Source: Ignavibacteria bacterium UBA7675 (GTDB lineage: Bacteria; Bacteroidota; Ignavibacteria; Kapaibacteriales; UB7675). From it: a stretch of 64,000 bases of DNA. The DNA lies in the NCBI GenBank assembly GCA_002483085.1, contig DLHF01000046.1:5313-69312 (forward strand), in the 5' to 3' direction. Shown here in pieces: positions 1,973 through 62,300 of the stretch (positions are counted from its first letter, which is position 1; the number at the start of each line of letters is the position of its first letter). The position numbers were made by a program, and so were the translations under genes. The notes beneath the pieces are model-generated. The model did not search any database. It worked only from the letters and a program-made list of their open reading frames with translations, and had not been told where the DNA came from.

Positions 1973-2333
1973 TCGCTTCGGTCTTTGGCCGGAGCCGCCC
2001 TGCGGGACGGCTCTACGCTCGGCCTTCGCACCGCGCAGCACACCCGCCTCGTGGGGTTCATCCTCCATCGCAAAAAAAAGAAACTCGGCTTTGCGTACTC
2101 CAAACGCAATACTGTCTTCCCCCTGCCGAAGCACACCCGACCACAATACCACTACGCTCCCTTCTGGAGGCGGCTGTCAAGAGAATCGAATCAGCTTTTA
2201 CATACCGGATTTCTGTGGTTTTGCAGGTAAGATAGCGGAGAAAGCACGCACGCCACGAAGCGGATGTGCGACCGGCGACAGCGACGTATCGTAAAGCCGC
2301 CTATATAGGCGGCTCGCCGCAACGACGCCCGTG
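1973..2333. repeat. composite copy of intergenic repeat family (module B forward ... module A reverse, ~180-bp internal spacer)
   Basis: GTCGCTTCGGTC...CCTTCGCACCGCGCAGCACACCCGCCTCGTGG at 1973-2065. GCGGATGTGCGACCGGCGACAGCGAC...GACGCCCGTGC at 2258-2333. A 14-bp direct duplication TGAACAGACGTTTT x2 abuts the left end. Confidence 0.6.
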
Positions 2334-2400
2334 CAACTAAACGTAGGAATAGAATAACAGTGCAAATCTGCAATATCTGGCTGCTCTGCGCTCCTTATGC

Positions 2401-3465
2401 TCAATCAGTCTTCAGCGTGAACGAGATCGTCGTCCCCTTGCCTTGCTCGCTTTTGAGATGCACTGTAGATTTATGCGCTTCGAGTATGTGCTTTACAATA
2501 GCGAGACCCAGCCCCGTGCCGCCCACCGAACGCGAGCGGTTTTTATCTACGCGGTAGAAGCGCTCAAAAATGCGTTTGTGGTGTTCGGGCGGGATACCAA
2601 TACCGTTGTCATGTATCTGCACCAGCACTTCTGTTTCGCCCGGTTTCAGCCACACATCTACTTTTCCGCCTTCCACATTATACTTAATAGCATTCTCGAT
2701 GAGGTTTGTAAGAACCTGAGCAAGCCTGTCGCGGTCGCCATAGACTTCGATATCCTCGTCGTCTTGCGGTTCATGGACAGTAATACTCACCTTCTTGGTC
2801 TGCGCCTGTGCTTCGAGATTGCGGGCGATTTCGCGCACGAGCGGAAGCAAAATAAAGTAGCGGAAGCTGAAGCGCATCTCGCCGGATTCAATACGCGAAA
2901 TATTGATAAGATCGGTAAGCAGCGAATTGAGGCGAACGGTATTGGCGTGCGCCTTTTCTACGAACTGACGGCTTACTTCCTGATCCTCTAGCGCACCGTC
3001 GAGCAGCGTTTCTAAAAATCCCTGAATAGAGAAAATAGGTGTGCGAAGCTCGTGCGATACATTAGCGAGAAACTCGCTGCGAACGCGTTCTAACCGCTGC
3101 ATGCCCTCGATGTCCTTGTTCGACTTGTCGGCGAGTTTATTTACAGCGGCATAAGCGCGCTGCGTCTCGGCGAAATCGGTGTTTTCATCGGCAGTAATAC
3201 GCGAGTGTGTAGAGCCTTCGCTAATAGCACGCGACACAACGGCAATGCGCGACACCGAGGCCGCAATACGGTCGGAAGTGCGAGCAGAAAACCAGAATAC
3301 CACTCCGAGGCTAGGAGCCAGAAGCAGGAGTGCTGCTATAATGCCAACCGTCGCAGAAGAATGAAAAAGCGCCGGAACTAACAGCGCAATTCCGGCGAAA
3401 ACAACGAATGCGAAGATAAAAATCAGGGAAAAATTTCGCGCCTGATACGCACGCAGAGAGATCAA
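2401..3465 (-). CDS. two-component sensor histidine kinase (2 TM, HisKA + HATPase_c; PhoR-like)
   Basis: H-box LANVSHELRTPIFSIQGF, N-box LIENAIKYN, G-boxes DNGIGIP and GGTGLGLAIV. The listed ORF runs to 3615 but overlaps the upstream regulator gene. TTG at 3465 (..MISLRAYQARNFSLIFIF, immediately before TM1) is my preferred start and is uncertain. Confidence 0.75.
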   Translation of the reverse strand: MISLRAYQARNFSLIFIFAFVVFAGIALLVPALFHSSATVGIIAALLLLAPSLGVVFWFSARTSDRIAASVSRIAVVSRAISEGSTHSRITADENTDFAETQRAYAAVNKLADKSNKDIEGMQRLERVRSEFLANVSHELRTPIFSIQGFLETLLDGALEDQEVSRQFVEKAHANTVRLNSLLTDLINISRIESGEMRFSFRYFILLPLVREIARNLEAQAQTKKVSITVHEPQDDEDIEVYGDRDRLAQVLTNLIENAIKYNVEGGKVDVWLKPGETEVLVQIHDNGIGIPPEHHKRIFERFYRVDKNRSRSVGGTGLGLAIVKHILEAHKSTVHLKSEQGKGTTISFTLKTD

Positions 3466-3488
3466 CGTCTGCCAGCCTTTATTGGATG

Positions 3489-4196
3489 TTAATTGAATCG
3501 GTAGCCAACACCTTTTACCGTGTCGATGTAATGTCCGTACTTGCCAAGTTTGTCGCGGATTTTTGAAATATGAACATCCACAGTGCGGTCGATTACGTGA
3601 ATGCTTTCGCCCCATATACGGCGCAGCAGCACTTCGCGGTCGAATACTTTGCCCCTGTTGGCAGCAAGAAACGCCAGCAGTTCAAATTCTTTTTTCGGGA
3701 AAAATGTCTCGACATTGTCGATCCGTACAGTGTAGTTCTGCCGGTTGATTTCCAGTGCTTCGACCTGTAAGATCTCGGGCGCTTTTATCGTTTCGGTCTT
3801 TATTTTTTGAGCAGCTCTCCGCAGATGGCTTTTTACACGCGCTACAAGCAGCCGTGGACTGATCGGCTTCTGGATGTAGTCGTCGGCTCCCAGCTCAAGC
3901 CCGAGAATCTCGTCAATCTCACCCGATTTCGCCGTGAGAAATATCACTGGCGTTGCTGCTGTGTCGGGGTCTGCTCGCAAAGTACGGCATACCTCGAATC
4001 CGTCCATCTCCGGCATCATAATGTCGAGCACAATAGCATCGGGACGGTATTGCCGTGTTTTGGCTACCCCCTGTGCACCGTCTGCAGCGGTAAGCACATT
4101 AAACCCTTCTTTTTTCAAGTTGTATCCTATCAGCTCGACAATATCTTCTTCATCATCGACAACCAGGATGGTTTTATTGTACATTTCATCAGGCAT
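3489..4196 (-). CDS. OmpR/PhoB-family response regulator (REC + winged-helix)
   Basis: Internal ATG giving MPDEMYNKTILVVDDEEDI. Residues upstream in the listed ORF lie in a duplicated non-coding segment. REC motifs DD..D..K. C-terminal trans_reg_C (VHISKIRDKL...GVGYRF). Confidence 0.85.
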   Translation of the reverse strand: MPDEMYNKTILVVDDEEDIVELIGYNLKKEGFNVLTAADGAQGVAKTRQYRPDAIVLDIMMPEMDGFEVCRTLRADPDTAATPVIFLTAKSGEIDEILGLELGADDYIQKPISPRLLVARVKSHLRRAAQKIKTETIKAPEILQVEALEINRQNYTVRIDNVETFFPKKEFELLAFLAANRGKVFDREVLLRRIWGESIHVIDRTVDVHISKIRDKLGKYGHYIDTVKGVGYRFN

Positions 4197-4268
4197 AGTA
4201 GTACGACATATAGTTGTACAAAAATACGAGTTACTGGTGCTACATTTCAGTGGAAGCCGAGTTAAAAT

Positions 4269-4504
4269 AGGTAAAATTTTGGTAATACGCGAACCGGCAG
4301 ATACGCCACAACAGCCCATCAGACGAATATAAGCTGTTTTGGTACAGAATTACGGTAATGGCGAGGTCAGGCAGAGACAAGAGACTGGTAGGTAAAATTT
4401 TGGTAATACACGAACCGGTAGGTACGCCACAACAGCCCATCAGACGAATATGAGCTGTTTTGGTACAGAATTGCAGCCGCGACGAGGTCAGGCAGAGACA
4501 AGAG
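4269..4504. repeat. two tandem 115-bp direct repeats (~93% identical) in the regulator promoter/leader region
   Basis: Unit 1 4269-4383 and unit 2 4390-4504 (GGTAAAATTTTGGTAATACRCGAACCGG...GGTCAGGCAGAGACAAGAG). Unit 2 overlaps the last codons of the 4488-5618 gene. Confidence 0.85.
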
Positions 4505-5618
4505 GCAGGCGCACTGTAACAGTGGTTCCGGTATTAAGCGCACTTTCTATGGCAAAATGCCCGCTGAATATCTGGGTGAGGAGCTTTACGAGGATAAGTC
4601 CCAAGCCGGTTCCCTGCTGCTCGTGTAGATTGCGATGAAACTGGCTGTAAGCGCCGATGCTCTTAATCTGCCCGGCATCCATGCCGCGCCCTCTGTCGAT
4701 CACTCTGATTTCGTACAAGTCGCTGCGTACAGCCGATTGCACAAGAATAGAGGTGCCCGCAACTGAGAACTTGAGGGCATTGTCGATAAGCTCGAAAACT
4801 ACCTTGTTGAAGCTCTCGTAACTCATTCCTACAGCGGCGTTGTCGAGCTGAAGCTCAATATCAGCAGCTCGGCCTGCATTGCGCGCATTCAGCGCTACAA
4901 GGTCGTGGATTACTTCTGCGGCATCATTCACTACTTCCCGGCGCAGCCGTATCAGCTCGTCGGGCTGGGTCAGCACAGCCTGAATCTGGGTGTAAAACAA
5001 AAAATTCTCGGCGATCTTTTGCAGCCGCCTTCCCGACTGGCTTACCGAAGTGGTAAGGTCGCACAATTCCTCGCGCGCAATCGCGATGTTCAGGTCGGAG
5101 TCCGATAGCATGCCGTGCAGGATATCTGTTCCGCCGAGAATGCCGTTGAGAGCTGTGCGGAATTCGTGTGGCAAAGCACTGGAAATACTTTCGCGCAGAT
5201 GGTCGAACATTTCTTCGTAGCGCTGCGCTATCCGGTCCTTCTTCATCATGTGGTTCCGCACACGAGCTACTAGCAGCCTCGGGCTGACAGGTTTCTGGAT
5301 GTAATCGTCGGCGCCGAGTTCGAGCCCCCGAATCTCGTCCGATTCAAGTGCACACGCTGTCAGAAAAATAATAGGTAACGACGAAGTGACGGGGTCCTGG
5401 CGTAGGACACGGCATACTTCAAACCCGTTGAGCTCTGGCATCATGATATCGAGTATGACGGCATCGGGCTGATGCTGCCGGGCAAGCTCTATAGCCTGTA
5501 CTCCGTCGAAAGCCGATAAGACATGGTATCCTTCTTTTTTGAGATTATAACTTATTAACTGCACTATGTCCTCTTCGTCATCTACAACGAGGACAGTCTG
5601 GTTAAGCATCATACACAC
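4488..5618 (-). CDS. hybrid response-regulator receiver / histidine-kinase-like protein (N-terminal REC, C-terminal HisKA-like + HATPase)
   Basis: REC about 70% identical to the REC of the 3489-4196 regulator (VLVVDDEEDIVQLISYNLKKEGY...LELGADDYIQKPVSPRLLVARV). H-box-like ALPHEFRTALNGILG. G-box GTGLGL. Confidence 0.75.
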   Translation of the reverse strand: MCMMLNQTVLVVDDEEDIVQLISYNLKKEGYHVLSAFDGVQAIELARQHQPDAVILDIMMPELNGFEVCRVLRQDPVTSSLPIIFLTACALESDEIRGLELGADDYIQKPVSPRLLVARVRNHMMKKDRIAQRYEEMFDHLRESISSALPHEFRTALNGILGGTDILHGMLSDSDLNIAIAREELCDLTTSVSQSGRRLQKIAENFLFYTQIQAVLTQPDELIRLRREVVNDAAEVIHDLVALNARNAGRAADIELQLDNAAVGMSYESFNKVVFELIDNALKFSVAGTSILVQSAVRSDLYEIRVIDRGRGMDAGQIKSIGAYSQFHRNLHEQQGTGLGLILVKLLTQIFSGHFAIESALNTGTTVTVRLPLVSA

Positions 5619-5792
5619 GTTCCGTTTTTACCACCGTTCCGCAAAATTAGAAATAGCGGCAGGTTTACCTGTGTAAATTCTCGGTAACATACCCCTCATG
5701 TGTGGAAATACTCAACACGAAACACATCTACTACTTGTGCGCGGCAAAAAACCGCATCGGCAAGGCTATAATTTCTCTCTACCTTGCTCTCT

Positions 5793-6079
5793 GGGGCGTT
5801 CTGCCTCTGCTCCTGCGTTCCCTCTCCGCACCGCGCAGCACGCCCGCCGCGTGGCTATTCACCCCCCAATCGCATGCAAAATGCCCCTCGTCGGGCATGG
5901 ACAGGTTCTCCTTCTTGCGTGGTAGAGATTCTGTGCATATCCTTTCCGGCGGCAGTCCTTTGGCCAGCAACCAACCGGCATTATCGTAAGCACGATGCGC
6001 GGACGAGGTCGACCGGCAACAGCGACCATACGGTAGAGCCGTCCCGCCAGGGCGACTCCGCTGCAACGACGCCCGTGCC
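5793..6079. repeat. composite repeat-family copy (module B forward + partial module A reverse)
   Basis: CTCTCCGCACCGCGCAGCACGCCCGCCGCGTGG at 5822-5858. GCAACGACGCCCGTGCC at 6063-6079. Confidence 0.55.
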
Positions 6080-6180
6080 ACACATCGCCCCACAACAGAA
6101 ACGGCAAAAAGCGTTGTGTTCTGCAACATTTGCAGCACACTGCGTTTGCAGAGGTCGAAAAACAGGGGTAACTTGCAGAT

Positions 6181-6864
6181 ATGGTACAAAAATTACAGAC
6201 AGCGGTGGCCGAGGACTACCTTCGAACCATCTACAAATTGCAGCAGAACGAAGGCGATGTAACAACAAGCAGGCTGGCGTCTGCGATGAACGTCTCATCA
6301 GCTTCTGCTTCGGATATGCTCAAAAAGCTCGCTTATGATAAATTGGTGCGCTATCGGCCTTATTACGGCGCATCGCTTACCGATCAAGGGCTGGCGATTG
6401 CCTTGGCCGTAACACGCAAACACAGGCTCTGGGAAATGTTTTTGGTGGAAACTCTCGGCTTCAGTTGGGATGAAGTTCACGCTATTGCTGATAAATTAGA
6501 ACACTACACGCCTGCGCTGTTAGAAAAGCGCATCGACGAAAAATTGGGCTTTCCGACTGTGGACCCACACGGCGACCCAATCCCCCGCTCCGATGGCGAA
6601 ATCCACCATTCTAATGTCGCTCTGCTGGCCGACCTGGCGCTAAATACTCCCGCTGTGGTAAGCCGTGTCTCCGACGACAATCCCGAAATACTTCAGTATC
6701 TGGCTAAAATCGGTATGAAGCTCGGGCAGCGTATCGTTGTGCGCGAAAGTATTCCTTTCGACAATACGCTGCACATCGATCTGGAGGGCAAGGAGCTCTT
6801 CCTGAGCAACAAGCTCGCAAACAGCGTGTTCGTGTCGGCTGACGCTGTGGAAACTCCCTCCTAG
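6181..6864 (+). CDS. DtxR/MntR-family metal-dependent transcriptional regulator with C-terminal FeoA/SH3-like domain
   Basis: N-terminal HTH (TSRLASAMNVSSASASDMLKKL), dimerisation/metal-binding region (RKHRLWEMFLVETLGFSWDEVHAIADKLEH) and a C-terminal FeoA-like tail. Confidence 0.85.
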   Translation: MVQKLQTAVAEDYLRTIYKLQQNEGDVTTSRLASAMNVSSASASDMLKKLAYDKLVRYRPYYGASLTDQGLAIALAVTRKHRLWEMFLVETLGFSWDEVHAIADKLEHYTPALLEKRIDEKLGFPTVDPHGDPIPRSDGEIHHSNVALLADLALNTPAVVSRVSDDNPEILQYLAKIGMKLGQRIVVRESIPFDNTLHIDLEGKELFLSNKLANSVFVSADAVETPS

Positions 6865-10682: not shown

Positions 10683-10695
10683 CAATGATTGCTGT

Positions 10696-10752
10696 GGCAC
10701 GGGCGTCTCCGCAGCCCCGCCGCGTCGCTGTCACCGGTCGCACATCCGGTTC
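10696..10752. repeat. solo module-A repeat copy
   Basis: GGCACGGGCGTCTCCGCAGCCCCGCCGCGTCGCTGTCACCGGTCGCACATCCGG. Confidence 0.6.
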
Positions 10753-10924
10753 TTGGTTGCCAAAAGTCTGTCGCTTGTTCTCTCATTCGCCGCAGAACAA
10801 TGGATTATCGCCTGTGTATCGCCTGGCCGCAAGAACAGCACAGACGAGCTCATGATAACTACAGCGCGGTGCAGAGGCCAGCACATGGCCGGAGACTGAA
10901 GCACCCACATTCATTGTGCAGTAA

Positions 10925-10960
10925 GCATAAAAACAAAGCCCGCCTGGAATCCAGACGGGC
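10925..10960 (-). terminator. hairpin terminator between convergent genes (better T-run on minus strand)
   Basis: AAAGCCCG-cctggaatccaga-CGGGCTTT. The minus-strand reading is followed by GTTTTTATG. Confidence 0.5.
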
Positions 10961-10992
10961 TTTGTTGCGTTCTGCAAAATCTGCGAGAAAGA

Positions 10993-12339
10993 CTACTGCT
11001 TATACTGTGCGTCTTTGATTTCCCAGTAGATCGTGTTGCGAAGTTCTTTCACCCAGTCTTCGTACATTTTATTGCGTTTAAACATCGTAGCGTACTGCTC
11101 TACGCGCTTCAGATCATTTTCCAACGACATAATATGTTCGGGAACTTTCGCCTTGCGATACACAATGCGGAACCCCACTTTAGTCGGGCTTCCCGCATAC
11201 GGTATCGGATCGCTTACACCGCCATCGGGCAAAGCTGTCACCGCGCTGCCAAGATCACCGAGCCGAGCTGCTTCCACAGGGCCAATAGCACCACCAAAGG
11301 CTTTTGTTTCTTCGTCTTCGGAATTCTCACGTGCCAGGTCCTCGAAATTCGCACCACCTTCAACCTGCTTTTTCAATTCTGCAAGAGCGGCCTTTGTTCT
11401 CTCTACATCATCGCCGGACTGGCCAATTTTAAAGAGAATGTGCCTTGTATTCACCGATCCCTCCCGCTTTTCTACGAGCTGGATGAGATGAAACCCGAAA
11501 GGAGTCTCTATCGGATCAGAAATCTCATTGGGCTTCAGCGAATACGCTATCTTCTCGTACTCAGGCACGAGCTTTCCTTTATTGACAAATCCGAGGTCGC
11601 CACCCGAAGCAGCCGAGCCAGCGTCGGCACTGTATCTTTTCGCAAAGGCAGCAAAATCACCACCTGCGAGAATTGAATCGCGCACACGCCGGGCGAGATT
11701 GCTCGCCTCATCTTTGGCGGCAGTTGTCGCATCAACGTATTTCACAATATGGTAGAGTTCGTATTGTTCTGGCACAAGCGGCAGCGAATCGCGGTAATCG
11801 CGGAAGAATGTCTCCACCTCGCGTTGCGAAGGCTTGATATCCATAAACTTCTGCTGCTTTTTGCGTTCGGTGAGCAACTGCTTGCGAATCTCGTCGCGAA
11901 AATCGCGGCGGATACGGGCAATGCTCATACCATAGACCTCTTCCACGCGCTTTTCGGAACCGAGCTGCTGCACAAGCGACTGGATCTGAAAATTGAGACG
12001 CTCGGTCACTTCATCATCAGTCACATTCACACTGTCCTCTATGGCCCTGACAAGAATGAGTTTTTCGTTGACAAGCGCATCGAGAATACGGTGCAGAATT
12101 TCCGGATTATTCGGATCTTTCATCACCGAGGGATCCTGCTGGGCGAGCAGCGCCATCTGTGTTTGGACATCCGACTGAAGAATTACTTCATTGCCCGCAA
12201 CAGCCACAATTTTGTCTACCGACTGTCCTTCCTTCACCTGCGCCTGTGCCAGCGGCAGACAAAGGCAGAACGCCAGAGCAAACAACTGAGTACAACGCGC
12301 TACGGCTCTTTTTCTCGCGAGAATAGTCTTAACCACCAT
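10993..12339 (-). CDS. SurA-like periplasmic chaperone/peptidyl-prolyl cis-trans isomerase (parvulin domains)
   Basis: Signal peptide MVVKTILARKRAVARCTQLFALAFCLCLPLAQA (start at internal ATG). PpiC/parvulin segments (SVNTRHILFKIG...ISDPIETPFGFHLIQLVEKRE). Confidence 0.75.
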   Translation of the reverse strand: MVVKTILARKRAVARCTQLFALAFCLCLPLAQAQVKEGQSVDKIVAVAGNEVILQSDVQTQMALLAQQDPSVMKDPNNPEILHRILDALVNEKLILVRAIEDSVNVTDDEVTERLNFQIQSLVQQLGSEKRVEEVYGMSIARIRRDFRDEIRKQLLTERKKQQKFMDIKPSQREVETFFRDYRDSLPLVPEQYELYHIVKYVDATTAAKDEASNLARRVRDSILAGGDFAAFAKRYSADAGSAASGGDLGFVNKGKLVPEYEKIAYSLKPNEISDPIETPFGFHLIQLVEKREGSVNTRHILFKIGQSGDDVERTKAALAELKKQVEGGANFEDLARENSEDEETKAFGGAIGPVEAARLGDLGSAVTALPDGGVSDPIPYAGSPTKVGFRIVYRKAKVPEHIMSLENDLKRVEQYATMFKRNKMYEDWVKELRNTIYWEIKDAQYKQ

Positions 12340-14443: not shown

Positions 14444-14539
14444 ACCTTTGGGGCATTAGTGGAACAATTTGAAAAATGAACATACGTAGGAACCCGCAAA
14501 TTTGCCAAACTCCCGTATGATATGCAAGTATAGTGCATT

Positions 14540-15910
14540 CTACGGCCTGTTCAGAAAGTCCGTACCAACTTTCCAAATGTCGCCTGCACCCAGTGTAAGC
14601 ACGATATCTCCTTCCCGTACAAGCGATTCCAGCAAATCAGTAATTTCTTCCTTATGAGGCAAATAATGCACGTTGCGATGCCCAAACTGGCGGGCAGCAT
14701 GCGCTACGAGCTCGCCAGTAACGCCCTCAATAGGCTGCTCGCGGGCGGGATAGACATCGGTGACAATGAGGACATCGGCATTGCCAAACGACTTGCCAAA
14801 GTCGGCGTAAAAATCGCGTGTCCGTGTAAATGTATGCGGCTGAAAAACACAGATAATGCGGTTGTTCCATCCGTCGCGGGTTGCCTGAAGAGTAGCTAAT
14901 ACCTCTGTGGGATGATGTGCATAGTCATCGATCACAAGTACACCTTGCCGCTCTCCTTTTACTTCAAAGCGCCTGTACACGCCCGAGAACTCTCGAAGCG
15001 CGTCGGCAATTATTTCAAACGGAATGCCTAATTTCAGCCCTACTGCCACCGATGCTAATGCGTTCTTGATGTTGTGCAGTCCGGGTATGTTGAGCTCCAT
15101 CGTGCCCATTGGCTCGTCGTTGTACAGTACTGTGCTGCGCGAGGAACGCTGGCGAAAGGTAATGTCTACAGCGCGCACTTCGCATTGCGGCGTCAGCCCA
15201 TATGTCACCTTCGGCTTGTTGATGGCAGGCAGCAATTCCATCGTATGGGGGTCGTCCAGGCATAATGCTACATAGCCGTAAAAGGGCACCTTGCCTGCAA
15301 ATTCGGCAAAAGTCGTCCGCAAGTCGTCGAGGTCTTTGTAGATGTCGGTGTGGTCTTCTTCCACATTGGTGATCACGGCAATGGTAGGCAGCAGTTGCAA
15401 AAACGATCTGTCGTATTCATCGGCTTCCACCACCGTCCATTCGCCATGCCCCAGCCGCGCATTGGTTCCGCCCAAGCCCTTTAGCCTGCCACCGACGATC
15501 ACCGTAGGGTCTAAACCGCCTTTCATCAGCACCAAGCCGCACATCGAGGTTGTCGTGGTCTTGCCGTGTGTGCCACCTATAGCGAGGCAATAGTTGAGCC
15601 GCGTCACTTCACCGAGCATTTCGGCTCGGCGAATAGTGGGAATATTGCGCAGCAAAGCTTCTGTTGTTTCAGGGTTTTCTGTAAGCCTGACTGCGCTCGA
15701 ATACACAACGACATCTGCGTTATGCACATGCTCCGCACTGTGCCCTTCGTAGATCACTGCGCCAAGCGATGCCAAGTAGTCGGTGCTTTCCGACCGCTGG
15801 AGGTCTGAGCCGCTTACGCGAAATCCCTGGTCGATAAGAATCTCGGCGATACCGCTCATGCCAATACCACCAATGCCCACAAAATGAATATTCCTTACAG
15901 AAGCAAACAT
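14540..15910 (-). CDS. murC: UDP-N-acetylmuramate--L-alanine ligase
   Basis: VGIGGIGMSGIAEIL nucleotide-binding N-terminus, GTHGKTTTTSM P-loop, Mur ligase middle and C-terminal domains. Confidence 0.9.
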   Translation of the reverse strand: MFASVRNIHFVGIGGIGMSGIAEILIDQGFRVSGSDLQRSESTDYLASLGAVIYEGHSAEHVHNADVVVYSSAVRLTENPETTEALLRNIPTIRRAEMLGEVTRLNYCLAIGGTHGKTTTTSMCGLVLMKGGLDPTVIVGGRLKGLGGTNARLGHGEWTVVEADEYDRSFLQLLPTIAVITNVEEDHTDIYKDLDDLRTTFAEFAGKVPFYGYVALCLDDPHTMELLPAINKPKVTYGLTPQCEVRAVDITFRQRSSRSTVLYNDEPMGTMELNIPGLHNIKNALASVAVGLKLGIPFEIIADALREFSGVYRRFEVKGERQGVLVIDDYAHHPTEVLATLQATRDGWNNRIICVFQPHTFTRTRDFYADFGKSFGNADVLIVTDVYPAREQPIEGVTGELVAHAARQFGHRNVHYLPHKEEITDLLESLVREGDIVLTLGAGDIWKVGTDFLNRP

Positions 15911-16049
15911 AGTCCTTCCTGCTTATAAAATACAAAAGCCCGTTTTTCCGGGCTTCCTCTCGCAATACAAAGTTTATTACTGGAACAGCACCGCCGCTCT
16001 CTTACCCGGCAATCGCAAAGATAAATCACAAAGATAGAAATGCGGTTGT

Positions 16050-16115
16050 GCGCTTCGGCCTTCGCTCATACGCTTTGTCTCCGCACCGCGCTGCACAGCC
16101 GCTGCGTGGATTGCC
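16050..16115. repeat. solo module-B repeat copy
   Basis: GCGCTTCGGCCTTCGCTC...GTCTCCGCACCGCGCTGCACAGCCGCTGCGTGG. Confidence 0.6.
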
Positions 16116-16150
16116 AGCATCCATCGCAAGGCAGTTCGCTGCCTGTAGCT

Positions 16151-16723: not shown

Positions 16724-16744
16724 ACAAAACTCCTTTTCTGCCGA

Positions 16745-22015: not shown

Positions 22016-22036
22016 TCCTTCTCTGCTGAAGTGCTA

Positions 22037-22064
22037 AAGCCAGGGCGTTGCTCTGGCTTTTTTG
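22037..22064 (+). terminator. rho-independent terminator after the B12/MeaB gene
   Basis: AGCCAG-ggcgttgct-CTGGCTTTTTTG. Confidence 0.7.
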
Positions 22065-22094
22065 TTGTACAGCAGTGGGGTCCTATCGGTCATG

Positions 22095-22288
22095 GCGCTT
22101 CGGCCTCCGCCCTCGTGTTGCCTCTCCGCACCGCGCAGCACAGCCGCAGCATGGCTTTTCAACCGTCACCCGCAAGAAAAAGGCCACCCGCACATGCAAC
22201 GACGGCTGGCGGAAAACTTCCGAACTACACGACAACGGGTGTGCGACCGGCGACAGCGGCTGAACGCCAGAGCGAAGAAGCCCGTGCC
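22095..22288. repeat. composite repeat-family copy (module B forward + module A reverse)
   Basis: GCGCTTCGGCCTCCGCC...CTCTCCGCACCGCGCAGCACAGCCGCAGCATGG. Then GTGTGCGACCGGCGACAGCGGC...GAAGCCCGTGCC. Confidence 0.65.
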
Positions 22289-22436
22289 CATACATTACCT
22301 TCGCAGAAGAACTAAAGGCAGCTCCAGACTAAAAAAAACGGGACGAAAGAAGGAACTGTTTGCTGGTGAGTTTTTTTGTATGTTACGGAATCGCTCGAAG
22401 CAACAGGAAAGATTGTATCCTATGCGGGGAGAAACT

Positions 22437-26510: not shown

Positions 26511-26599
26511 TGGGAAAACCAGCGTCGGTTTTGCGGGACACAATCATGCCGGGTATGTATTGGAGCTACCTACAGTTGATGACAAAAATAAAAAATGGT

Positions 26600-26732
26600 G
26601 GCACGGGCGTCGCTCGGGCGCTCGGCTCGTCGCTGTCACCGGTCGCAAAACCGCTGCGGTGGAGGTCGGCCAGCCACGCAACGGCAATGCTGCGCGGTGC
26701 GGAGACCCAAAGCAAGAGCGAAGACGGCGGCG
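26600..26732. repeat. compact full-length repeat element (module A forward + module B reverse, ~133 bp)
   Basis: GGCACGGGCGTCGCTCGGGCGCTCGGCTCGTCGCTGTCACCGGTCGCAAAACCGCTGCGGTGG...CCACGCAACGGCAATGCTGCGCGGTGCGGAGACCCAAAGCAAGAGCGAAGACGGCGGCGC. Coordinates may be off by 1 here (see rejected note). Confidence 0.7.
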
Positions 26733-26782
26733 CTCTTATTGCAAAAGCTAAAAAGCACGATGCTCAGCAGCACCAGGCTCTA

Positions 26783-29980: not shown

Positions 29981-30019
29981 TGCATCTCGATGCACTCGCG
30001 ATACATCTTGCTCAACTTA

Positions 30020-34634: not shown

Positions 34635-34679
34635 TCGCAACAACACAACATCGTGGCTGTATGTTGCAAAGAGATAGGT

Positions 34680-34752
34680 GGCACGGGCGTCTTTGTGACG
34701 CCCGCCCAGTCGCTGTCACCGGTCGCACGAGCCGGTTAGCCGCTGGCCAAAA
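34680..34752. repeat. solo module-A repeat copy
   Basis: GGCACGGGCGTCtttgtGACGCCCGCCCAGTCGCTGTCACCGGTCGCACGAGCC. The internal stem-loop is maintained by compensatory change. Confidence 0.6.
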
Positions 34753-34782
34753 GCCATCCGCAACTTGTGATAACAGCAATAG

Positions 34783-35798: not shown

Positions 35799-35916
35799 AC
35801 CTTTACACCATACAGAGGTTTTACAACACGATTGCCGCAAGATACAAACTGATTAGCAGTTTTCATATGGATGAAGCAATTGACAGTTTCCGGCGCAGAG
35901 GAGCAGAGTTAATGTG

Positions 35917-36309: not shown

Positions 36310-36591
36310 GGCAGATAGTATTATAGTTAGGAAAACCGGGTTGGAGCTAAAGTTAGTAAATTTCCCTATTTACAGCAATTGCCCTGAACTGTTATCGCAT
36401 CTAAATTTTCCAGCGGCGTTTTTTCAAGAATTTCGCCACCGCGCTTTATATGCGTTTGCTCTGGCCGCTGTGCGTATGGCTATTAGTTGCAGAAGGCCAT
36501 ATCGTTGCGCCCACACACCGATGAGCACATCCTGCGGCTGAAGCTCTATGCTATTGAGTGCTTCTCTGCACAGGGCGAAGGAGGCCGGACT

Positions 36592-36651
36592 ACCACGCGG
36601 CGGACGTGCTGCGCGGTGCAGAGAACGGAGTACGCACAGCGACCGAAGCGC
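36592..36651. repeat. solo module-B repeat copy (reverse orientation)
   Basis: CCACGCGGCGGACGTGCTGCGCGGTGCAGAGAACGGAG...GCGACCGAAGCGC. Confidence 0.6.
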
Positions 36652-36733
36652 TCCTATCGCCATTGCACTGCCGACAAGGCTCTACCCGCGAGGAAAAATT
36701 TTTACCACTGCACAATGCTTTGTAATTTGCAGG

Positions 36734-42353: not shown

Positions 42354-42420
42354 CACATTGTCCATCCTACAACGTCTTGATACGCATTCGCTCATGAGTC
42401 TTGCTGCTGCTATAGATTGT

Positions 42421-42482
42421 GGCACGGGCGTCGCTCGGGCGCCCGTCTGGTCGCTGTCACCGGTCGCACAAGCCGCTGCGTG
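42421..42482. repeat. solo module-A repeat copy (near-consensus)
   Basis: GGCACGGGCGtcgctcggCGCCCGTCTGGTCGCTGTCACCGGTCGCACAAGCCGCTGCGTG. Confidence 0.65.
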
Positions 42483-42736
42483 ATTTTTCTACCAGCAATC
42501 GCGCGGGCATACTGCCGCAGTACAACGCCGGAACAAAAGATAGCAGTAGGTAGAATGCTCCCTTCCAGCGACAGAAGCGAACATCACATCCAAAAACATT
42601 GTACAGAACAGCGTTCGCAACATCGTATCGACTGCGTAGAATGATGTTTTTTTTGCCTGTACTACTGGCGCACGATTTTCTATCTTGCATATTGAACGGA
42701 GTGCGATTTCGTTCATTTATTATCATAGGGTTCTTT

Positions 42737-44851: not shown

Positions 44852-44880
44852 GGCGGTGAACTTCACCGCCTTCTTTTTTT
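44852..44880 (+). terminator. rho-independent terminator
   Basis: GGCGGTGAA-c-TTCACCGCC followed by TTCTTTTTTT. Confidence 0.7.
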
Positions 44881-44899
44881 ACCACAACAACTGAACCAA

Positions 44900-44991
44900 A
44901 GCGAACGCCCCCCGGCCAACCGAAAAGCGGATGTGCGACCGGTGACAGCGACCAGGCGGTCGCCGCAAAGAAGCCCGTGCCATAACCTTTG
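44900..44991. repeat. module-A repeat copy in reverse orientation with extended arm shared with the 46720-46806 copy
   Basis: AGCGAACGCCCCCCGGCCAACCGAAAAGCGGATGTGCGACCGGTGACAGCGACCAGGCGGTCGCCGCAAAGAAGCCCGTGCC. Confidence 0.65.
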
Positions 44992-46572: not shown

Positions 46573-46584
46573 AAAAATAGTTTT

Positions 46585-46806
46585 GCGCTTCGGTCTGCGC
46601 TCTACCGTTTAGTCTGCGCACCGCGCTGCAAAACCGCCGCGTGGCATTGCAACCCGTCTGCGCGCATGTTCCCGTAACGGTGCGAGGCGATACGGCCATT
46701 CGCTGGGCGATACGACAGCACCAGAGCGAACAACCTCCGGCCAACCGAAAAGCGGATGTGCGACCGGTGACAGCGACCAGACGGGCGGTGCAAAGAAGCC
46801 CGTGCC
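46585..46806. repeat. composite repeat-family copy (module B forward + module A reverse)
   Basis: GCGCTTCGGTCTGCGCTC...GTCTGCGCACCGCGCTGCAAAACCGCCGCGTGG. Then CCGAAAAGCGGATGTGCGACCGGTGACAGCGACCAGACGGGCGG...GAAGCCCGTGCC. Confidence 0.65.
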
Positions 46807-46839
46807 ACAAACTTTTCGCAATACTACACGGCAATACCT

Positions 46840-47285: not shown

Positions 47286-47295
47286 CGGCACAGCG

Positions 47296-52733: not shown

Positions 52734-52871
52734 CGCCTATGTAGTTGTACCACAAGAGCGATGTGCAGACAATCTTGCGATCCCCCTACTACTGCGATGA
52801 AGCCTGCACGGCCACGCGGCGGTTATGCAGCGCGGTGCGGAGGCGCAACGCTGGAGCGGAGACCGAAGCGC
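52708..52871. repeat. composite repeat-family copy (degenerate module A forward + module B reverse)
   Basis: GGCACGGTCGCGGGCGCCGAGCG... then CCACGCGGCGGTTATGCAGCGCGGTGCGGAGGCGC...GAGACCGAAGCGC. Confidence 0.55.
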
Positions 52872-53409
52872 AATCAGGCAAAACGATGTATCATGTTGGA
52901 TCGAGCGCCATACTATCATCAGCAGCCATTAGCTGCCCGTTGTTGGCAACAATTGGTACGGCACACTCCGAGTCGAGATTGATGTTTTCGCTACTACTAC
53001 TACCCGTGGCAGTTGCAGGTATTTCTGCCCCGAGCGCAAAGGCACTCATGGTAGCGGCTATGAGCAATGGCCGCGACCACGAAACGCCAAAAGAGCAATA
53101 CTTCCTTGTAGGAACTATGTTGTCCATACATTCTCCCTGAAATTGCAGGCAATGCACAGCCTTCCCATCCCGGCACACAGGATGAGCGCAGAGCAATCGC
53201 CCCAAAGTAAAAAATGGTTATACTATCGCATACGAATAAGGGAAGCTGTACCCCGCGTAGCCTTCTCCAATCCAGAACCATGCGCACTGCGAAACTACCT
53301 TGTAGACGGCAGGCAATCAATCGGTGTTTGTCTGATTTTGTCCTACGCAATCACCTGAGAGCAGGGCTTTTGGCCATATACTCTGTGCCCTGTGCCAGCT
53401 ATTCGCAAT

Positions 53410-53450
53410 AAAAAAGGCATGGTGGCTTCCCCTTACAATGCCACCATACC
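53410..53450 (-). terminator. hairpin with minus-strand T-run (orphan terminator in a gene-poor gap)
   Basis: Minus-strand reading GGTATGGTGGC-attgtaagggga-GCCACCATGCC then TTTTTTATT. No annotated minus-strand gene immediately upstream of it. Confidence 0.4.
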
Positions 53451-53611
53451 TTATATGTACTCCCCTTATATGTTCCGTCAGCGAACATTTTTCTACAGGC
53501 AGATCATTCCTGCCTAAAAACCTTTTATGCACCTAAAAAACTTCTTATGCACCTGCTTTCCCCTTGCATTTACTGCAAAGAAGTCGAAAGAGCATACTGG
53601 ATACAAGGATG

Positions 53612-53674
53612 AATGAGTATCTGGCGGCTTTCAGTGAGTATCTGGCGGCTTTCAGTGAGTATCTGGCGGCTTCT
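53612..53674. repeat. three perfect/near-perfect tandem copies of a 21-bp unit
   Basis: AATGAGTATCTGGCGGCTTTC / AGTGAGTATCTGGCGGCTTTC / AGTGAGTATCTGGCGGCTTCT. Confidence 0.85.
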
Positions 53675-54187
53675 ATGTGCACTTCTGCCAGTGCAATTCC
53701 TGTCGCTATGCGCGTTTGCCCCGGTAGAGAAGGGCATATCGGAAACTGTTTGCAGACCGAAACAGCATACAACGCAGCCGGAACTATGGAGGAAATCTCC
53801 ATATCTCTACTGGCACTGATAATTTCCCTGTGTTTTCTCTAAAGTAAAAGTTCTCCCGTTCGATACTATGCAAACCGGTGTCAAAATTATGTTTCTGCGC
53901 AGAACTTTATACAATGGCTCTTCAAGGGATTGAAAAGAGCTCCACAAAAGCAGAAAACTGATAGTAGCTTAATCAGTCAGCAAACAGCAATCATAGAACT
54001 ACGGACAAGTACCATACAACAGATTTATGATTGGGTGCGATTGTACACGATCTGTACAGACAATCTCTTGTATGTGTAGCTCTTGCCCTTCTCATCCGCA
54101 TCTACGGCCATACTCTTCAATATTGGTGGCAACAGCTATGCGTATTCTCCATTATCCTTCTAAAGATTTTCCCAAAGGTACATTGTT

Positions 54188-56788: not shown

Positions 56789-56815
56789 ATGTCGTTTTGT
56801 AGGTTATGGGAGCAT

Positions 56816-56874
56816 GGGCACGGGCGTCGTTGCCCGCCCTTCTGTCGCTGTCGCCGGTCGCACAACTGCTCGTG
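56816..56874. repeat. solo module-A repeat copy
   Basis: GGCACGGGCGTCGTTGCCCGCCCTTCTGTCGCTGTCGCCGGTCGCACAACTGC. Confidence 0.6.
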
Positions 56875-56967
56875 TTTTTCGCCCACCTGCCGCCTGTTTC
56901 AGCTTGTAATAAAAAAGCCGTGCGGTGAAACCGACACGGCTATACCATACACGCAGAATGCGCGTGG

Positions 56968-58299: not shown

Positions 58300-58513
58300 A
58301 AATCAGAATTCCTGTTTGATTTACACTCTCTACAGGCCCGGCTGCTCATGCGGCAGAGCCCAAATGCGTATGCCGGGATAATCAGCGCTTAAAATACGTT
58401 TTTTTCATTGAACGGGCAATATCTGAACACCTAAAAAACACAGGCCCAACACGATGAACCCCGCCGGGTATCTATTGCCCCAATTGCGACTGCTATGACA
58501 GCTCGCAGTTGTG

Positions 58514-58574
58514 GCGCTTCGGCCTCTGCTCCTACCTCTGCTCTCTGCACCGCGCAGCACATCCGCTGCGTGTG
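58514..58574. repeat. solo module-B repeat copy
   Basis: GCGCTTCGGCCTCTGCTCC...CTCTCTGCACCGCGCAGCACATCCGCTGCGTG. Confidence 0.6.
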
Positions 58575-58966
58575 TTTCGACCCGTCCCCCGCGCATTTGC
58601 TACCGTAAAACGGTGCGCCTGTGGTAGCCCACACTGGCAAAGAACAGCTAGTTCCAGCCTTCCGGGCACAGTTCCTACACCGAGACGATTTCCATCCGGT
58701 GAGCCTCGTGTGCGTAGGCCAAATACATCTTGCAGAGAATGACTCATCAGCTTACCAAGGCGATATGATAAAAATAGTGATAGTAGTGTCGACCTAACGA
58801 GAGAGGCATATGGTTTTGCTCTATACATCGGCCAGCAGAATTTCTATTAGTGAAGCTTTGAGCGCACAGGAAAACACACTGGTTTTAGTACACCGTGTGC
58901 CGTATATTGCGCCCTGTTGTTCGCAATTTTAGTCGTCTTTCTTTATTCGTTGTACGGGAGATTCTT

Positions 58967-59803: not shown

Positions 59804-62029
59804 TTATCTGACGACTGTAAATACGCCCGTCTGCACGCGCTGCCCGGCTTGTAGCCTGTACATATAGGTTCCCGCCGTAAGCTCTGCGGTGCTCACTGTG
59901 GCCGTGTGCTCTCCCGCCGCCATTTTGCTATCGAATGCAGTAAACTTCCTGCGGCCAAACGTGTCGTACACATCTATTACTACACGCTGTGCCGACACTA
60001 ATCCAAACTGTACATATACATATGAAGAAGTAGGGTTTGGATAAGCAGTGGTCTGCACACCGTTATCCAGCACAGAAGCACTTGCGGCAAGGTTAGTCAT
60101 AGCCGCAAAAATATCGAGCTTGCCGTATCCCCACGTGTTGTTTGGAAGCGAGCCATGCGATGCGGTAAAGCTGTCCTCTGCGGCTGTGCCTGTCAGAACA
60201 TTATACACCTCGCTGAACGAGGACAAAGGATGTTTCTCCATGTAAAGAGCAACTGCGCCAGCAACCGCAGGAGCAGACATACTCGTACCACTTCGCACCA
60301 TGTAGCGCCCATCTCCTACAATAGTAGAAGGAACATCTTTGCGCTCGACCACGCGGGCTGATACGACGCGCTCGCCCGGCGCTGCAATGTCGGGCTTCAG
60401 ACGGCCATCAGATGTTGGCCCGGAACTGGAAAACACGCTGAGCTCGCCTACAGGACGCCCCGACCCCAAACGTTCGATACCACTTGTATCAGTATAAGAA
60501 TATCTGTTTATATAGCATCCTACGGTGATGGCTCCGCGCGACACACCGGGCACACCCACCTGCATGAGGTTGTCTGTAGGTCTGTAGCGCGAGTTGAATG
60601 GCAAACCGCCACTTGTGTGCTCCGGGTCGTCTACATATCGCCCCCAGGAGTGGAAAGTACCGCTACCCCGCACTTTGATGCGGTAAATACTCAATTTACT
60701 CTGAAAACGCCGCATTGAAAGCATCAAGTCAACGCGTCCTGATGGGGCTTTCGAAGCGGTGAATGTAATGACTGCCGACGTGTCGTGTGGCACTCCTGAT
60801 GTCGTGCAAAGCCATGTGAGAGTACTACTGCCGATATCGGCAAGGCTGGCGGGCGTCCACCACGGAGTAGCTCCTACCGGCACGAAAAACAGCTTGCCAT
60901 TACTGCTGCCGAGGGAATCGCATTCCACGGCAATTTCTAATGTTTCGGTATCAGAAGCTGGTACTTCAAAATACAATCCGTCCTGGCGGAAGCTGTAAAT
61001 CCACAGTGAATCTTGCTCTACAGGAAAACCGCCCCAGTGTGTTTTGAGCTCGCCGTCGTTGCCCGCCGAAGCACAGAATATTCGCCCGGGTTTTGCATGC
61101 ACCAACTGGTCGATTGCCTGCGATGCTGCGTCGTCGCCACTGTGCGTTACACCAAGCCGCTGCCCAAGGCTGGCATTGATTACACATGGCATGCCTAGCT
61201 CGTCAGCTTTGGCGTAGATGTACGCTACAGCATCAACAAAAGAAGTAAGCACGACATTTTCCTGTTCAAAATCCAACTGCACAACAACGATAGAAGCCTC
61301 GGGAGCAACACCGTTGTTTCCGGCGGCAGTAGCAGCTACATGAGTGCCGTGCCCGATCTGGTTGTCGTTTTGCAATACAAAGCCCGCAGGCGAGCCATCG
61401 AGCTCGTCTTCAATCTGCGCTTGTGTGTACTCCACGCCATAGTCGAAGCCTTTTGGGGCTGCGCCCTGTGTCTGCATATGGCTCCAGATAGCGAGAATAC
61501 GCGAGCGCGTAGAATCGGCGGGATCGCGAAATTCGGCATGGGTAAAATCAATACCGCTGTCGATAATTCCCACCAGCACCCCCTTACCAGTATAGCTCCG
61601 GTCTAAAGGCATAGTGCCTCGATGTACCCTGTCGGCGCCGATATCTGCCACTAACGAATCGTTGTGCAATTCCATCGGCGACGCTGCTTCTATATATTCC
61701 ACACTGGATAGAGCTGCTACCCCCTCAATACGCGAAGCTGGAATGCGAGCCGTCACCAGCAATGGCAATACAGTACCTACAACTCCGCCATGCTGCTCTA
61801 TCTCCTGCCTGAGCGCCGAACCGTCGCCGCGCACAAATACGTGGAGCATATCGTCCGCTGGTACAACTGCCGCGCGCAAAGCTGCCAATTGCCGCTGGTG
61901 CAGCATCATGCGAAGACGGGCATCGTATTTGGACAGAGCAGTCTTCTCCACACCATCTGCATGTGCGGCAGAAGAAAGAAGAAACACAAAAGCAGCGATG
62001 GCAAAAGCAAAACGGATGGCTCGGTGCAT
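59804..62029 (-). CDS. subtilisin-like serine peptidase (S8) with T9SS C-terminal sorting domain
   Basis: Start at internal ATG (MHRAIRFAFAIAAFVFLLSSAAHA). IIDSGIDFTHAEF (Asp), GHGTHVAATAAG (His), SGTSMSAPAVAGA (Ser). Tail AYPNPTSSYVYVQF...GTYMYRLQAG. Confidence 0.85.
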   Translation of the reverse strand: MHRAIRFAFAIAAFVFLLSSAAHADGVEKTALSKYDARLRMMLHQRQLAALRAAVVPADDMLHVFVRGDGSALRQEIEQHGGVVGTVLPLLVTARIPASRIEGVAALSSVEYIEAASPMELHNDSLVADIGADRVHRGTMPLDRSYTGKGVLVGIIDSGIDFTHAEFRDPADSTRSRILAIWSHMQTQGAAPKGFDYGVEYTQAQIEDELDGSPAGFVLQNDNQIGHGTHVAATAAGNNGVAPEASIVVVQLDFEQENVVLTSFVDAVAYIYAKADELGMPCVINASLGQRLGVTHSGDDAASQAIDQLVHAKPGRIFCASAGNDGELKTHWGGFPVEQDSLWIYSFRQDGLYFEVPASDTETLEIAVECDSLGSSNGKLFFVPVGATPWWTPASLADIGSSTLTWLCTTSGVPHDTSAVITFTASKAPSGRVDLMLSMRRFQSKLSIYRIKVRGSGTFHSWGRYVDDPEHTSGGLPFNSRYRPTDNLMQVGVPGVSRGAITVGCYINRYSYTDTSGIERLGSGRPVGELSVFSSSGPTSDGRLKPDIAAPGERVVSARVVERKDVPSTIVGDGRYMVRSGTSMSAPAVAGAVALYMEKHPLSSFSEVYNVLTGTAAEDSFTASHGSLPNNTWGYGKLDIFAAMTNLAASASVLDNGVQTTAYPNPTSSYVYVQFGLVSAQRVVIDVYDTFGRRKFTAFDSKMAAGEHTATVSTAELTAGTYMYRLQAGQRVQTGVFTVVR

Positions 62030-62245
62030 ATGCAGATTCCAACAAAAATTAAGATGAAGCGGAAGATACAACAGAACTCTATTATATCCTCGTGTGCGCT
62101 TTTTGGCAGCGATACGATAATAGTTGCTGACCACGAACTCTTGGCAAGGATGCAGCACAGCAAAAAAATCCCGTATCTAAAAAACCCCGTATCTGTATCT
62201 ATTGTAGAAGTTATCCAACATTGTGCTCTCTACCCCATAGGCTGT

Positions 62246-62300
62246 GGCACGGGCGTGGTTCGGCGCACGGCTCGGCGCTGTCACCGGTCGCACAAACTGT
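62246..62300. repeat. solo module-A repeat copy
   Basis: GGCACGGGCGTGGTTCGGCGCACGGCTCGGCGCTGTCACCGGTCGCACAAACTG. Confidence 0.6.

Follow-up and report, generated by a model that had tools for sequence, protein, structure and literature searches.

Gene boundaries in a 64-kb stretch of the Ignavibacteria bacterium UBA7675 genome (64,000 nucleotides, hereafter the window) carry a dense set of palindromic repeats that probably constitutes a new non-autonomous family of the REPIN/ERIC type, one that spread in trans without target duplication, is now mostly inherited vertically and has constrained boxes. Although the family is new, its kind is familiar (REP/REPIN/ERIC/MITE-like), and its chief distinction lies in core boxes that remain nearly unchanged at orthologous sites. 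We found no description of this family in the literature on Kapabacteria or Ignavibacteria, and the present data place a dense palindromic repeat on record for a poorly studied, uncultivated lineage of Kapabacteria/Ignavibacteria-like FCB bacteria.

Searches of the window with nhmmer revealed 11 copies of module A and 10 of module B at 15 loci, all of them intergenic and comprising six A/B composites, five solo A arms and four solo B arms (Table 1), while shuffled sequence gave essentially none. The A profile recovered ten strong copies plus a degenerate one at 5949-6082 (-), and the B profile nine strong copies plus a partial one at 10861-10907 (-). The A box GTCGCTGTCACCGGTCGCAC was matched 10 times at three or fewer mismatches (0.00 expected), the B box CTCCGCACCGCGCAGCAC nine times (0.14 expected), and the box CCGCTGCGTGG, common to both modules, 12 times (1.9 expected). 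A first-pass annotation had proposed a dense, dispersed, non-coding family of at least 15 copies, and the 15 copies or half-copies found here, with box matches far above chance, bear this out. Its placement of the repeat at nearly every gene boundary was overstated, as elements occupy 15 of about 45 boundaries, or about one third. Two of its assignments also change: the supposed solo A at 10696 has a decayed inverted B partner and is a composite, and in the supposed composite at 52708 only the B(-) arm at 52784-52875 is detectable, with no A match nearby at E<10.

Table 1. Repeat elements in the window. The strand given for composites is the A->B strand.
Element	Position	Strand	Arms and E-values	Context and remarks
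Composite unit 1	1972..2342	-	B arm (+) 1972-2085; ~140-bp core; A arm (-) 2224-2342	Nested hairpins 1991-2013 (B arm) and 2294-2314 (A arm); between tRNA-Leu terminator and 3' end of histidine-kinase gene 2401-3615(-)
Composite unit 2	5789..6086	-	B arm (+) 5794-5883, E 7.2e-19; A arm (-) 5949-6082, E 4.6e-06	A arm degenerate, with nested hairpin; between divergent genes 4488-5618(-) and 6181-6864(+)
Composite unit 3	10689..10910	+	A arm (+) 10692-10781; decayed B arm (-) 10861-10907	Canonical terminator 10932-10966(-) between element and SurA-like gene
Solo B arm	16047..16135	+	E 2.3e-22	
Composite unit 4	22089..22295	-	B arm (+) 22091-22183; A arm (-) 22199-22293	Downstream of terminator 22036-22060(+)
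Minimal 147-bp unit	26593..26739	+	A arm (+) 26594-26676, overlapping B arm (-) 26647-26738	Arms overlap at shared apical hairpin; architecture shared with 14 metagenome units (144-148 bp)
Solo A arm	34676..34772	+	E 6.9e-22	Could mark the left end of an A...B composite that extends as far as B(-) 36563-36656
Solo B arm	36563..36656	-	E 3.3e-18	Upstream of methylmalonyl-CoA mutase gene
Solo A arm	42415..42512	+	E 1.2e-20	
Solo A arm	44896..44986	-	E 1.9e-21	Just past terminator 44852-44870(+)
Composite unit 6	46579..46813	-	B arm (+) 46581-46667; A arm (-) 46722-46811	
Solo B arm	52784..52875	-	E 4.7e-22	
Solo A arm	56812..56901	+	E 4.3e-15	
Solo B arm	58509..58599	+	E 3.7e-18	
Solo A arm	62241..62334	+	E 1.2e-17	

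Alignment of the consensus sequences indicates that A and B have diverged from a single arm of about 61 nt (40/61 identical, a score reached by 0 of 1000 shuffles), and the canonical unit is an imperfect inverted repeat of these two arms, 144-148 bp (about 146 bp) in length. Head and box are GTGGCACGGGC and GGTCGCTGTCACCGGTCGCA in the A arm and GCGCTTCGG and GGTCTCTGCACCGCGCTGCA in the B arm, and the two arms face one another across a variable apical hairpin. Aligned end to end, 15 units of 144-148 bp share a mean column identity of 77%; longer copies carry insertions at the unit centre, with cores of 0 to over 300 bp. An inverted B partner accompanies 24 of 27 metagenome A copies and 6 of the 11 in the window. 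The full element is an imperfect inverted repeat, as first suggested, but the palindromy reaches beyond the terminal box to span the whole of both arms. Unit termini are often TG...CA, and the A head is preceded by G, T and G in 50, 71 and 83% of copies, respectively, to give GTGG at best. An A-rich TTTG motif also lies ahead of the A head.

When folded, the A and B boxes pair into a stem of about 26 bp, which is better formed on the A->B strand. Indeed, this strand folds better in 14 of the 15 units (mean MFE -63.6 versus -57.3 kcal/mol), and the central helix between the arms is 96% paired, with 54 G·U versus 1 C·A cells. Folding the minimal unit of the window with DNA parameters gave no better result than shuffles (z = +0.48). 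Covariation along the long helix reached values matched by 45-54 of 500 shuffles, a test that is uninformative here because the paired columns are invariant. The first hairpin of the A arm, in which the earlier annotation saw a stem kept paired by compensatory change, does not covary: its 5' half (GCACGGGC) is invariant while the 3' half drifts, and the CGCCCG-like partner is kept in only 21 of 42 copies.

The family extends well beyond the window, being present on 27 metagenome contigs on which the flanks of copies are unlike those of the window, and in five related genomes (L116, L117, L120, L125 and L126). Loci of relatives were fetched by their marker protein, MurC or methylmalonyl-CoA mutase; carriers of the family are 94-80% identical in the marker, and the family is absent from the examined locus of a relative with 70% MurC identity (L118/L119). 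The distribution leaves virtually no room for a local segmental duplication or a chance similarity confined to the window: for duplication we can count the local density and a pair of A arms 1.8 kb apart, at 44896..44986 and 46712-46821, that are 86% identical over 110 nt, but the unrelated flanks on metagenome contigs and the copies in related genomes refute it, as the near-absence of matches in shuffles does for chance. A 17-nt box pattern run against genome contigs gave at least 86 single chance matches in unrelated GC-rich genomes, and at those loci nhmmer matched the seed region only. Viral contigs gave no match to the repeat, nor did BLAST searches of plasmids and phages.

Comparison of the window with its relatives showed positions to be conserved at three sites and different at others. 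For example, unit 3 has an ortholog in L120 (5756-5951) that is likewise a composite and better preserved, and unit 4 has a composite ortholog in L116 (3250-3416). The solo B arm at 16047..16135 is matched by a solo B in L120 (378-489) with 26/26 conserved columns identical, whereas L116 has no copy in the corresponding spacer. Similarly, the A arm at 42415..42512 corresponds to an A(+) at the end of L126 (4206-4255; 22/23 conserved columns identical). In L125 and L126 the spacer that holds the B arm at 36563..36656 contains a module that differs in type or orientation, and two gene-carrying A...B pairs, whose cargo differs, occupy a common site in two genomes. Across orthologous copies the conserved columns are 130/135 identical (96%) and the variable columns 52/106 (49%), close to the 0.44-0.53 identity of murC 4-fold sites, and about 30 positions per arm are strongly conserved in situ. 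With about 65-70% pairwise identity and variable columns close to saturation, the copies are old and offer no evidence of recent movement.

Several features bear on how the family moved. No target-site duplication was found in 20 well-anchored composites, whichever of 121 offset combinations was used for k=2-9, the best fixed offset accounting for 5/20 at k=2, 4/20 at k=3 and at most 2/20 at k>=4. The 40 ORFs of the window contain no transposase domain (Y1_Tnp or other), in agreement with the first-pass annotation, and among the 58 ORFs screened from the metagenome contigs Pfam identified housekeeping genes and one IS110 but no other transposase. On this single replichore the elements are oriented 8 versus 7, without bias. 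Strong canonical terminators separate gene ends from elements at 10932-10966, 22036-22060 and 44852-44870, and the family would not be the main terminator of its flanking genes.

In our preferred reading the family is a non-autonomous element whose spread depended on mobilisation in trans, presumably by an enzyme that recognises single-stranded ends in their folded form and does not give rise to a duplication. By analogy with REPINs, the leading candidate for that enzyme would be a RAYT/IS200-type HUH tyrosine transposase, with a DEDD (IS110-type) recombinase as the second candidate. Solo arms would then be truncated or decayed units, and present persistence would be owed mostly to vertical inheritance with the boxes under constraint. 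Some observations run against this reading. No transposase is linked to the family in the window, the metagenome contigs or the loci of relatives; the arms exceed classical REPs (20-40 bp) and have no GTAG or CGTC tag architecture; the copies are old; turnover between relatives could also stem from deletion and recombination; the balanced orientation is unlike that of IS200/IS605-type elements; and boxes conserved in static orthologous copies are unlike the prediction for a purely selfish element.

The unit resembles the ERIC/IRU of enterobacteria, an intergenic imperfect palindrome of about 130-150 bp with high sequence conservation and with size variants that arise through insertions at internal sites. 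To our knowledge no transposase is known for ERIC/IRU either. There is no evident sequence relationship between the two, however, the host lineage is another one, and ERIC copies are reported mainly from transcribed regions, whereas several units here lie past terminators. With REPINs and BIMEs the family shares the character of a high-copy extragenic palindromic repeat (PMC3116915, PMC3733652) whose replicative unit is two inverted arms able to form one long hairpin, as well as partner spacers that vary in length and are sometimes structured, singletons that are decayed halves, a lack of target duplication, long vertical persistence and a mosaic association with other small hairpin modules. 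REP superfamilies, including those of Chlorobi and Bacteroidetes, indeed comprise dimers with conserved or structured spacers as well as decayed singletons, and have no dedicated transposase nearby (PMC3733652), a pattern described for REPINs too (PMC3116915). A REP, in contrast, is a short palindrome of 20-40 bp, one end of which bears an unpaired GTAG or CGTC tag (PMC3733652). A REPIN-RAYT system also includes a cognate RAYT (Y1 HUH transposase) gene that the repeats flank within the genome. The arms here are about 61 nt long and fixed as two different sequences (a heterodimer), the B head is without a tag and the small hairpin of the A head is intact in only half of copies, and the copies differ from each other far more than do those of a typical REPIN population.

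Among the alternatives, a classical MITE, that is, a deletion derivative of a DDE-transposase IS moved by cut-and-paste through terminal inverted repeats, is quite unlikely. The long imperfect inverted repeats, small size without coding capacity, intergenic dispersal and TG...CA termini would suit it, and Correia/NEMIS, RUP and Nezha MITEs are likewise 100-160-bp units with terminal inverted repeats, at a comparable intergenic density of about one per 4-8 kb. Yet Correia/NEMIS and other MITEs have short TIRs and target-site duplications (TA for Correia), whereas here nothing is duplicated, the similarity of the arms spans the whole unit rather than the tips alone, and no IS with matching ends occurs in the 64-kb window, in the metagenome contigs (57 kb) or in the loci of relatives. 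A structured RNA, in which the transcribed A->B strand forms a hairpin of about 146 nt that acts as a small RNA or as a UTR stability or processing element, strikes us as similarly improbable. It would account for the wobble-pair asymmetry and better folding of this strand, for insertions of variable length at the apex only, for the TTTG motif, and for an apical stem that, as we read the alignment, varies by subfamily yet stays paired (GGTG/CACC, GGAGT/ACTCC, GTTG/CAAC). Against it, covariation is not significant, folding z-scores are modest (-1.8 and -1.3), no terminator T-run lies 3' of the unit, orientation is independent of flanking transcription, several units lie past strong intrinsic terminators, and boxes are kept in solo arms incapable of forming the hairpin. 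Rfam at gathering score matched only the tRNA-Leu in the whole window, permissive thresholds yielded only chance matches of at most 14 bits for the unit alone, and L092 gave no match; the unit corresponds to no RNA family described in Rfam.

The conservation of the boxes may instead reflect host-functional DNA sites, bound by a chromosomal protein (a regulator, nucleoid or recombination protein) and retained at fixed intergenic positions whatever their origin, which we regard as unlikely. This would explain the neutral drift of variable columns in copies whose conserved columns hold, the intact boxes of solo arms without a partner, the 6/9 solos with a head that points to a gene start 25-210 nt away, and a module upstream of the mutase gene in 3/3 genomes examined. 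Position and orientation relative to promoters are inconsistent, however, with convergent, divergent and co-directional spacers occupied alike; elements are gained or lost at particular spacers between relatives that retain the neighbouring genes; decayed halves and insertions at the centre of a 146-bp palindrome are what the dynamics of repeat elements typically produce; and no candidate binding protein was found. A domesticated system of this uncultivated FCB lineage, served by a dedicated putative protein and using the repeat as an abundant hairpin RNA or ssDNA signal or as recombination boundaries that capture DNA at their centre, is an unlikely but conceivable reading. On this view the units would be more than old selfish DNA, with some 30 positions in each arm kept by selection at set chromosomal sites and with a strand-specific hairpin, and the variable cores together with the same-site pairs of different cargo hint at recombination boundaries. 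The idea that the A head TGGCACGGGC is the -24 element of a sigma-54 promoter carries almost no weight. TGGCACG is a perfect -24 box, and the copies at 26599 and 42420 match TGGCACG-N4-TTGCW with one mismatch, but these are only 2 of 11 A heads and 30 of 100 shuffles match at least as often, which effectively refutes the reading; moreover, the -12 GC is unconserved at the required spacing and heads point toward gene 3' ends as often as toward starts.

One relative has an IS110-family element within a (G/C)ACAGAG tract directly beside a complete unit. In L092 this IS (about 530-2088) interrupts the CACAGAG tract outside the unit, and contigs of the L092-type IS and of its 61%-identical relative start after the unit. 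L092, L121 and L123 represent one locus or one IS rather than independent cases, and the adjacency is seen at one locus only. The IS in all three sits in the flanking tract, ruling out the unit as the left end or bridge-RNA region of the IS, and the window has no IS110. The arrangement recalls REP-targeting IS110-family elements (e.g. IS621, ISPpu10) in that the IS adjoins a unit, but differs in that the insertion is secondary and lies alongside the unit instead of forming part of it.

The static orthologous copies, with box positions 96% identical while variable positions drift at a neutral rate, provide a clean case that bears on whether REP-like elements act as parasites, as domesticated tools or in both roles, and the two 20-nt boxes could serve as baits for a cognate protein. 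The repeats also cause assemblies of these organisms to break into short contigs, several of which end within boxes.

Two conserved boxes named in the first-pass annotation are real and well above chance in the window, where GTCGCTGTCACCGGTCGCAC was matched 10 times with up to three mismatches (0.00 expected) and CTCCGCACCGCGCAGCAC nine times (0.14 expected); the shared CCGCTGCGTGG box was matched 12 times (1.9 expected). Profile HMMs made from the repeat copies themselves gave 10 strong matches to module A plus a degenerate one (5949-6082, minus strand), and nine strong matches to module B plus a partial one (10861-10907, minus strand). These matches group into 15 loci, all intergenic, comprising six A/B composites, five solo A arms and four solo B arms. 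The original observation was confirmed and its interpretation was largely right, except that the supposed solo A at 10696 has a decayed B partner and is a composite, the supposed composite at 52708 is a solo B alone, and elements occupy about one third of gene boundaries rather than nearly all of them.

Repeat loci in the window, as located by profile HMM
Type	Position	Strand
A/B composite	1972-2342	
A/B composite	5789-6086	
A/B composite	10689-10910	
A/B composite	22089-22295	
A/B composite	26593-26739	
A/B composite	46579-46813	
Solo A	34676	
Solo A	42415	
Solo A	44986	(-)
Solo A	56812	
Solo A	62241	
Solo B	16047	
Solo B	36656	(-)
Solo B	52875	(-)
Solo B	58509	

The consensus sequences of the A and B arms share 40 identical positions over ~61 nt, a score reached by none of 1000 shuffles. 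Therefore, the imperfect palindrome proposed earlier stands, with the correction that the similarity spans the entire unit and both whole arms, not the terminal box alone. Across 15 units aligned end to end (14 metagenome units of 144-148 bp and window 26593-26739), mean column identity was 77%. Each arm consists of a head (GTGGCACGGGC in A, GCGCTTCGG in B), a variable stretch and an almost invariant 20-nt box, the conserved arm boxes being GGTCGCTGTCACCGGTCGCA and GGTCTCTGCACCGCGCTGCA. The variable stretch of the A arm, formerly a small hairpin, is still intact in only 21 of 42 copies. Together the A and B boxes form a 26-bp helix, 96% paired. A variable apical hairpin closes this helix, differing among subfamilies with its self-complementarity kept. 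In longer composites (169-469 bp), heterogeneous insertions are found at this apex, some of them containing additional small repeated hairpin modules. An optional 20-25-nt hairpin of the GAGCCGCC...GGCGGCTC type can also nest in the A or B arm, and since only some copies have it the repeat family is mosaic. Such hairpins occupy the same relative place in each arm at window 1991-2013, 2294-2314 and ~6010-6050, and at ~420-450 and ~5870-5920 in the related-genome locus L120. At window 34676-36656, A(+) and B(-) arms with heads outward bracket a trio of small ORFs (136 aa; 155 aa, lipocalin-like; 130 aa) directly upstream of the methylmalonyl-CoA mutase gene; at the equivalent place in another related locus (L125, 8107-9862) a B(+)...A(-) pair brackets a Na+/H+ antiporter gene instead. 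These gene-flanking pairs may be long composites with differing cargo, or a coincidence, considering how densely the repeats lie.

The family is present beyond the window. A gapped A-module pattern matched 28 metagenome contigs, of which 26 come from a single sample, and nhmmer confirmed module A on 27; their flanks are unlike the window, indicating that the family is dispersed. Inverted B adjoins A on 24 of the 27, and the entire unit measures 144-148 bp in 14 of these 24 pairs. Similarly, the family was found in five related genomes, represented by loci fetched via MurC (L120, L116 and L117, with 90%, 87% and 80% identity) or the mutase (L126, 94%; L125, 87%, with 46% G+C). It was not found in a relative with 70% MurC identity.

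Several sites are orthologous. The window and L120 share a solo B in the GNAT/murC spacer and a composite downstream of the SurA-like gene, while a composite between meaB and a large surface-protein gene is shared with L116 and a solo A after the methyltransferase gene with L126. In L116 the GNAT/murC solo B is missing, and a composite occupies the RR-HK/GNAT gene spacer, which is 22 nt long in the window. Three genomes differ in the module upstream of the mutase gene, which is B(-), B(+) or A(-). In orthologous pairs 130 of 135 family-conserved columns are identical, compared with 52 of 106 variable columns (49%; non-orthologous baseline 34-38%), a value close to that of murC 4-fold degenerate sites (44-53%). 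Therefore, the variable positions have drifted to about the synonymous level with ~30 positions per arm held, in solo arms as well, which could reflect constraint per site, homogenisation or re-occupation of hot spots. In L117 the place after the SurA-like gene, which in the window belongs to an M28 peptidase, is taken by a type III CRISPR-Cas cluster (11144-17137; cas2, RAMPs, Csm2/4, Cas10), and an A module lies between cas2 and the next gene (11707-11788).

These repeats are best interpreted as imperfect palindromes of a new interspersed family that resembles REPINs and ERIC elements. Searches of Rfam, which the first-pass annotation had proposed, and of plasmids and phages gave no match. 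GTAG/CGTC REPs have a formal definition, outside which this family falls (PMC3733652). Unlike MITEs, the family shows no target-site duplication, none being found when 121 offset combinations were tried for k = 2-9 on 20 anchored composites, which is evidence against a DDE-type MITE. It is therefore classed as behaving like a REPIN or ERIC element while belonging to neither group. Covariation in the 26-bp helix was not significant, because its columns are invariant. Its wobble cells show a marked strand asymmetry (54 G·U vs one C·A), and folding energy is lower on the strand reading A arm then B arm in 14 of 15 units (means -63.6 vs -57.3 kcal/mol). Both results suggest that one single strand, of DNA or RNA, is recognised in folded form. 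This asymmetry, together with static-site conservation, leaves some room for domestication as a protein-binding site, hairpin RNA or recombination boundary, which we consider unlikely. Strong canonical intrinsic terminators lie between gene end and element at 10932-10966(-), 22036-22060(+) and 44852-44870(+), and tRNA-Leu(GAG) with a hairpin-plus-T-run terminator after it (1822-1946) is directly upstream of composite 1972-2342; since separate terminators precede them, the elements are not the principal terminators. A sigma-54 promoter at the A head was also rejected, as it fits just two of 11 heads.

As REPIN/ERIC-like palindromes, the repeats would have spread without target duplication by means of an enzyme supplied in trans, for which the leading candidate, by inference, is an HUH/Y1 RAYT-type transposase acting on a folded single strand. 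At present they would be mostly vertically inherited, with the boxes constrained. Unit orientation is unbiased (8 vs 7) within the window, a single replichore, and is independent of flanking transcription. The reported absence of a transposase was borne out, none of the 40 window ORFs having such a domain.

On one metagenome contig (L092, the same as L122; region 364-2110) an IS110-family transposase lies ~95 nt from a complete unit. Its ORF (603-1670) has DEDD_Tnp_IS110 and Transposase_20 domains, and the locus recurs in further samples; contigs L121 and L123 represent this one locus or this one IS as well. The IS (~530-2088) breaks a (G/C)ACAGAG tandem tract, which precedes the A head in the Ga0196964 organism and is uninterrupted in contig L104 (~215-260), and the alignment with a 61%-identical IS starts just past the unit. 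The IS110 element was rejected as the unit's parent and is instead a secondary insertion into the flanking tract, recalling REP-targeting IS110 members. Contigs L121 and L122 are 98% identical throughout right of the B head and differ in their left flanks, through either rearrangement at the repeat or chimeric assembly.

The gene content of the window (~51% G+C) is that of an ordinary chromosome, with MurC, TopA, SurA-like PPIases, methylmalonyl-CoA mutase, two-component systems and T9SS-tailed surface proteins. Those relatives of its MurC and mutase that bear a name (~63-84% identical) are annotated as MAGs of Bacteroidota, Ignavibacteria, Chlorobi or Candidatus Kapabacteria. The identical MurC protein is listed on a 232-kb NCBI contig, and a 13.9-kb Logan contig with MurC terminates within an A box. 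In the spacer between response-regulator and hybrid histidine-kinase genes, a 121-nt unit occurs twice in tandem (4268-4504; 90% matches). Three paralogous IgGFc_binding-domain surface proteins are encoded within 22299-34634, the first two genes each preceded by a composite unit, and runs of a ~76-aa Ig-like repeat (228-231-nt period; 23927-25367 and 28547-28813) occur in two of the three. A low-G+C island (30000-32400; 41%) includes a tandem repeat (68 nt x2.6, 30581-30762) and a 495-aa ORF (30873-32360) that matches nothing in Pfam or PADLOC. Two genes at 38887-40712, an AAA_21/AAA_15 ATPase and a 174-aa partner, have PADLOC matches to HEC-01, a candidate defence system (HEC-01A, 2.8e-48; HEC-01B, 7.5e-07); this module is in L125 and missing between the mutase and DAO genes of the closest relative, L126. 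Finally, 1.3 kb at 52876-54187 lacks any ORF above ~130 aa and contains a perfect tandem repeat (21 nt x2.8, 53614-53672).
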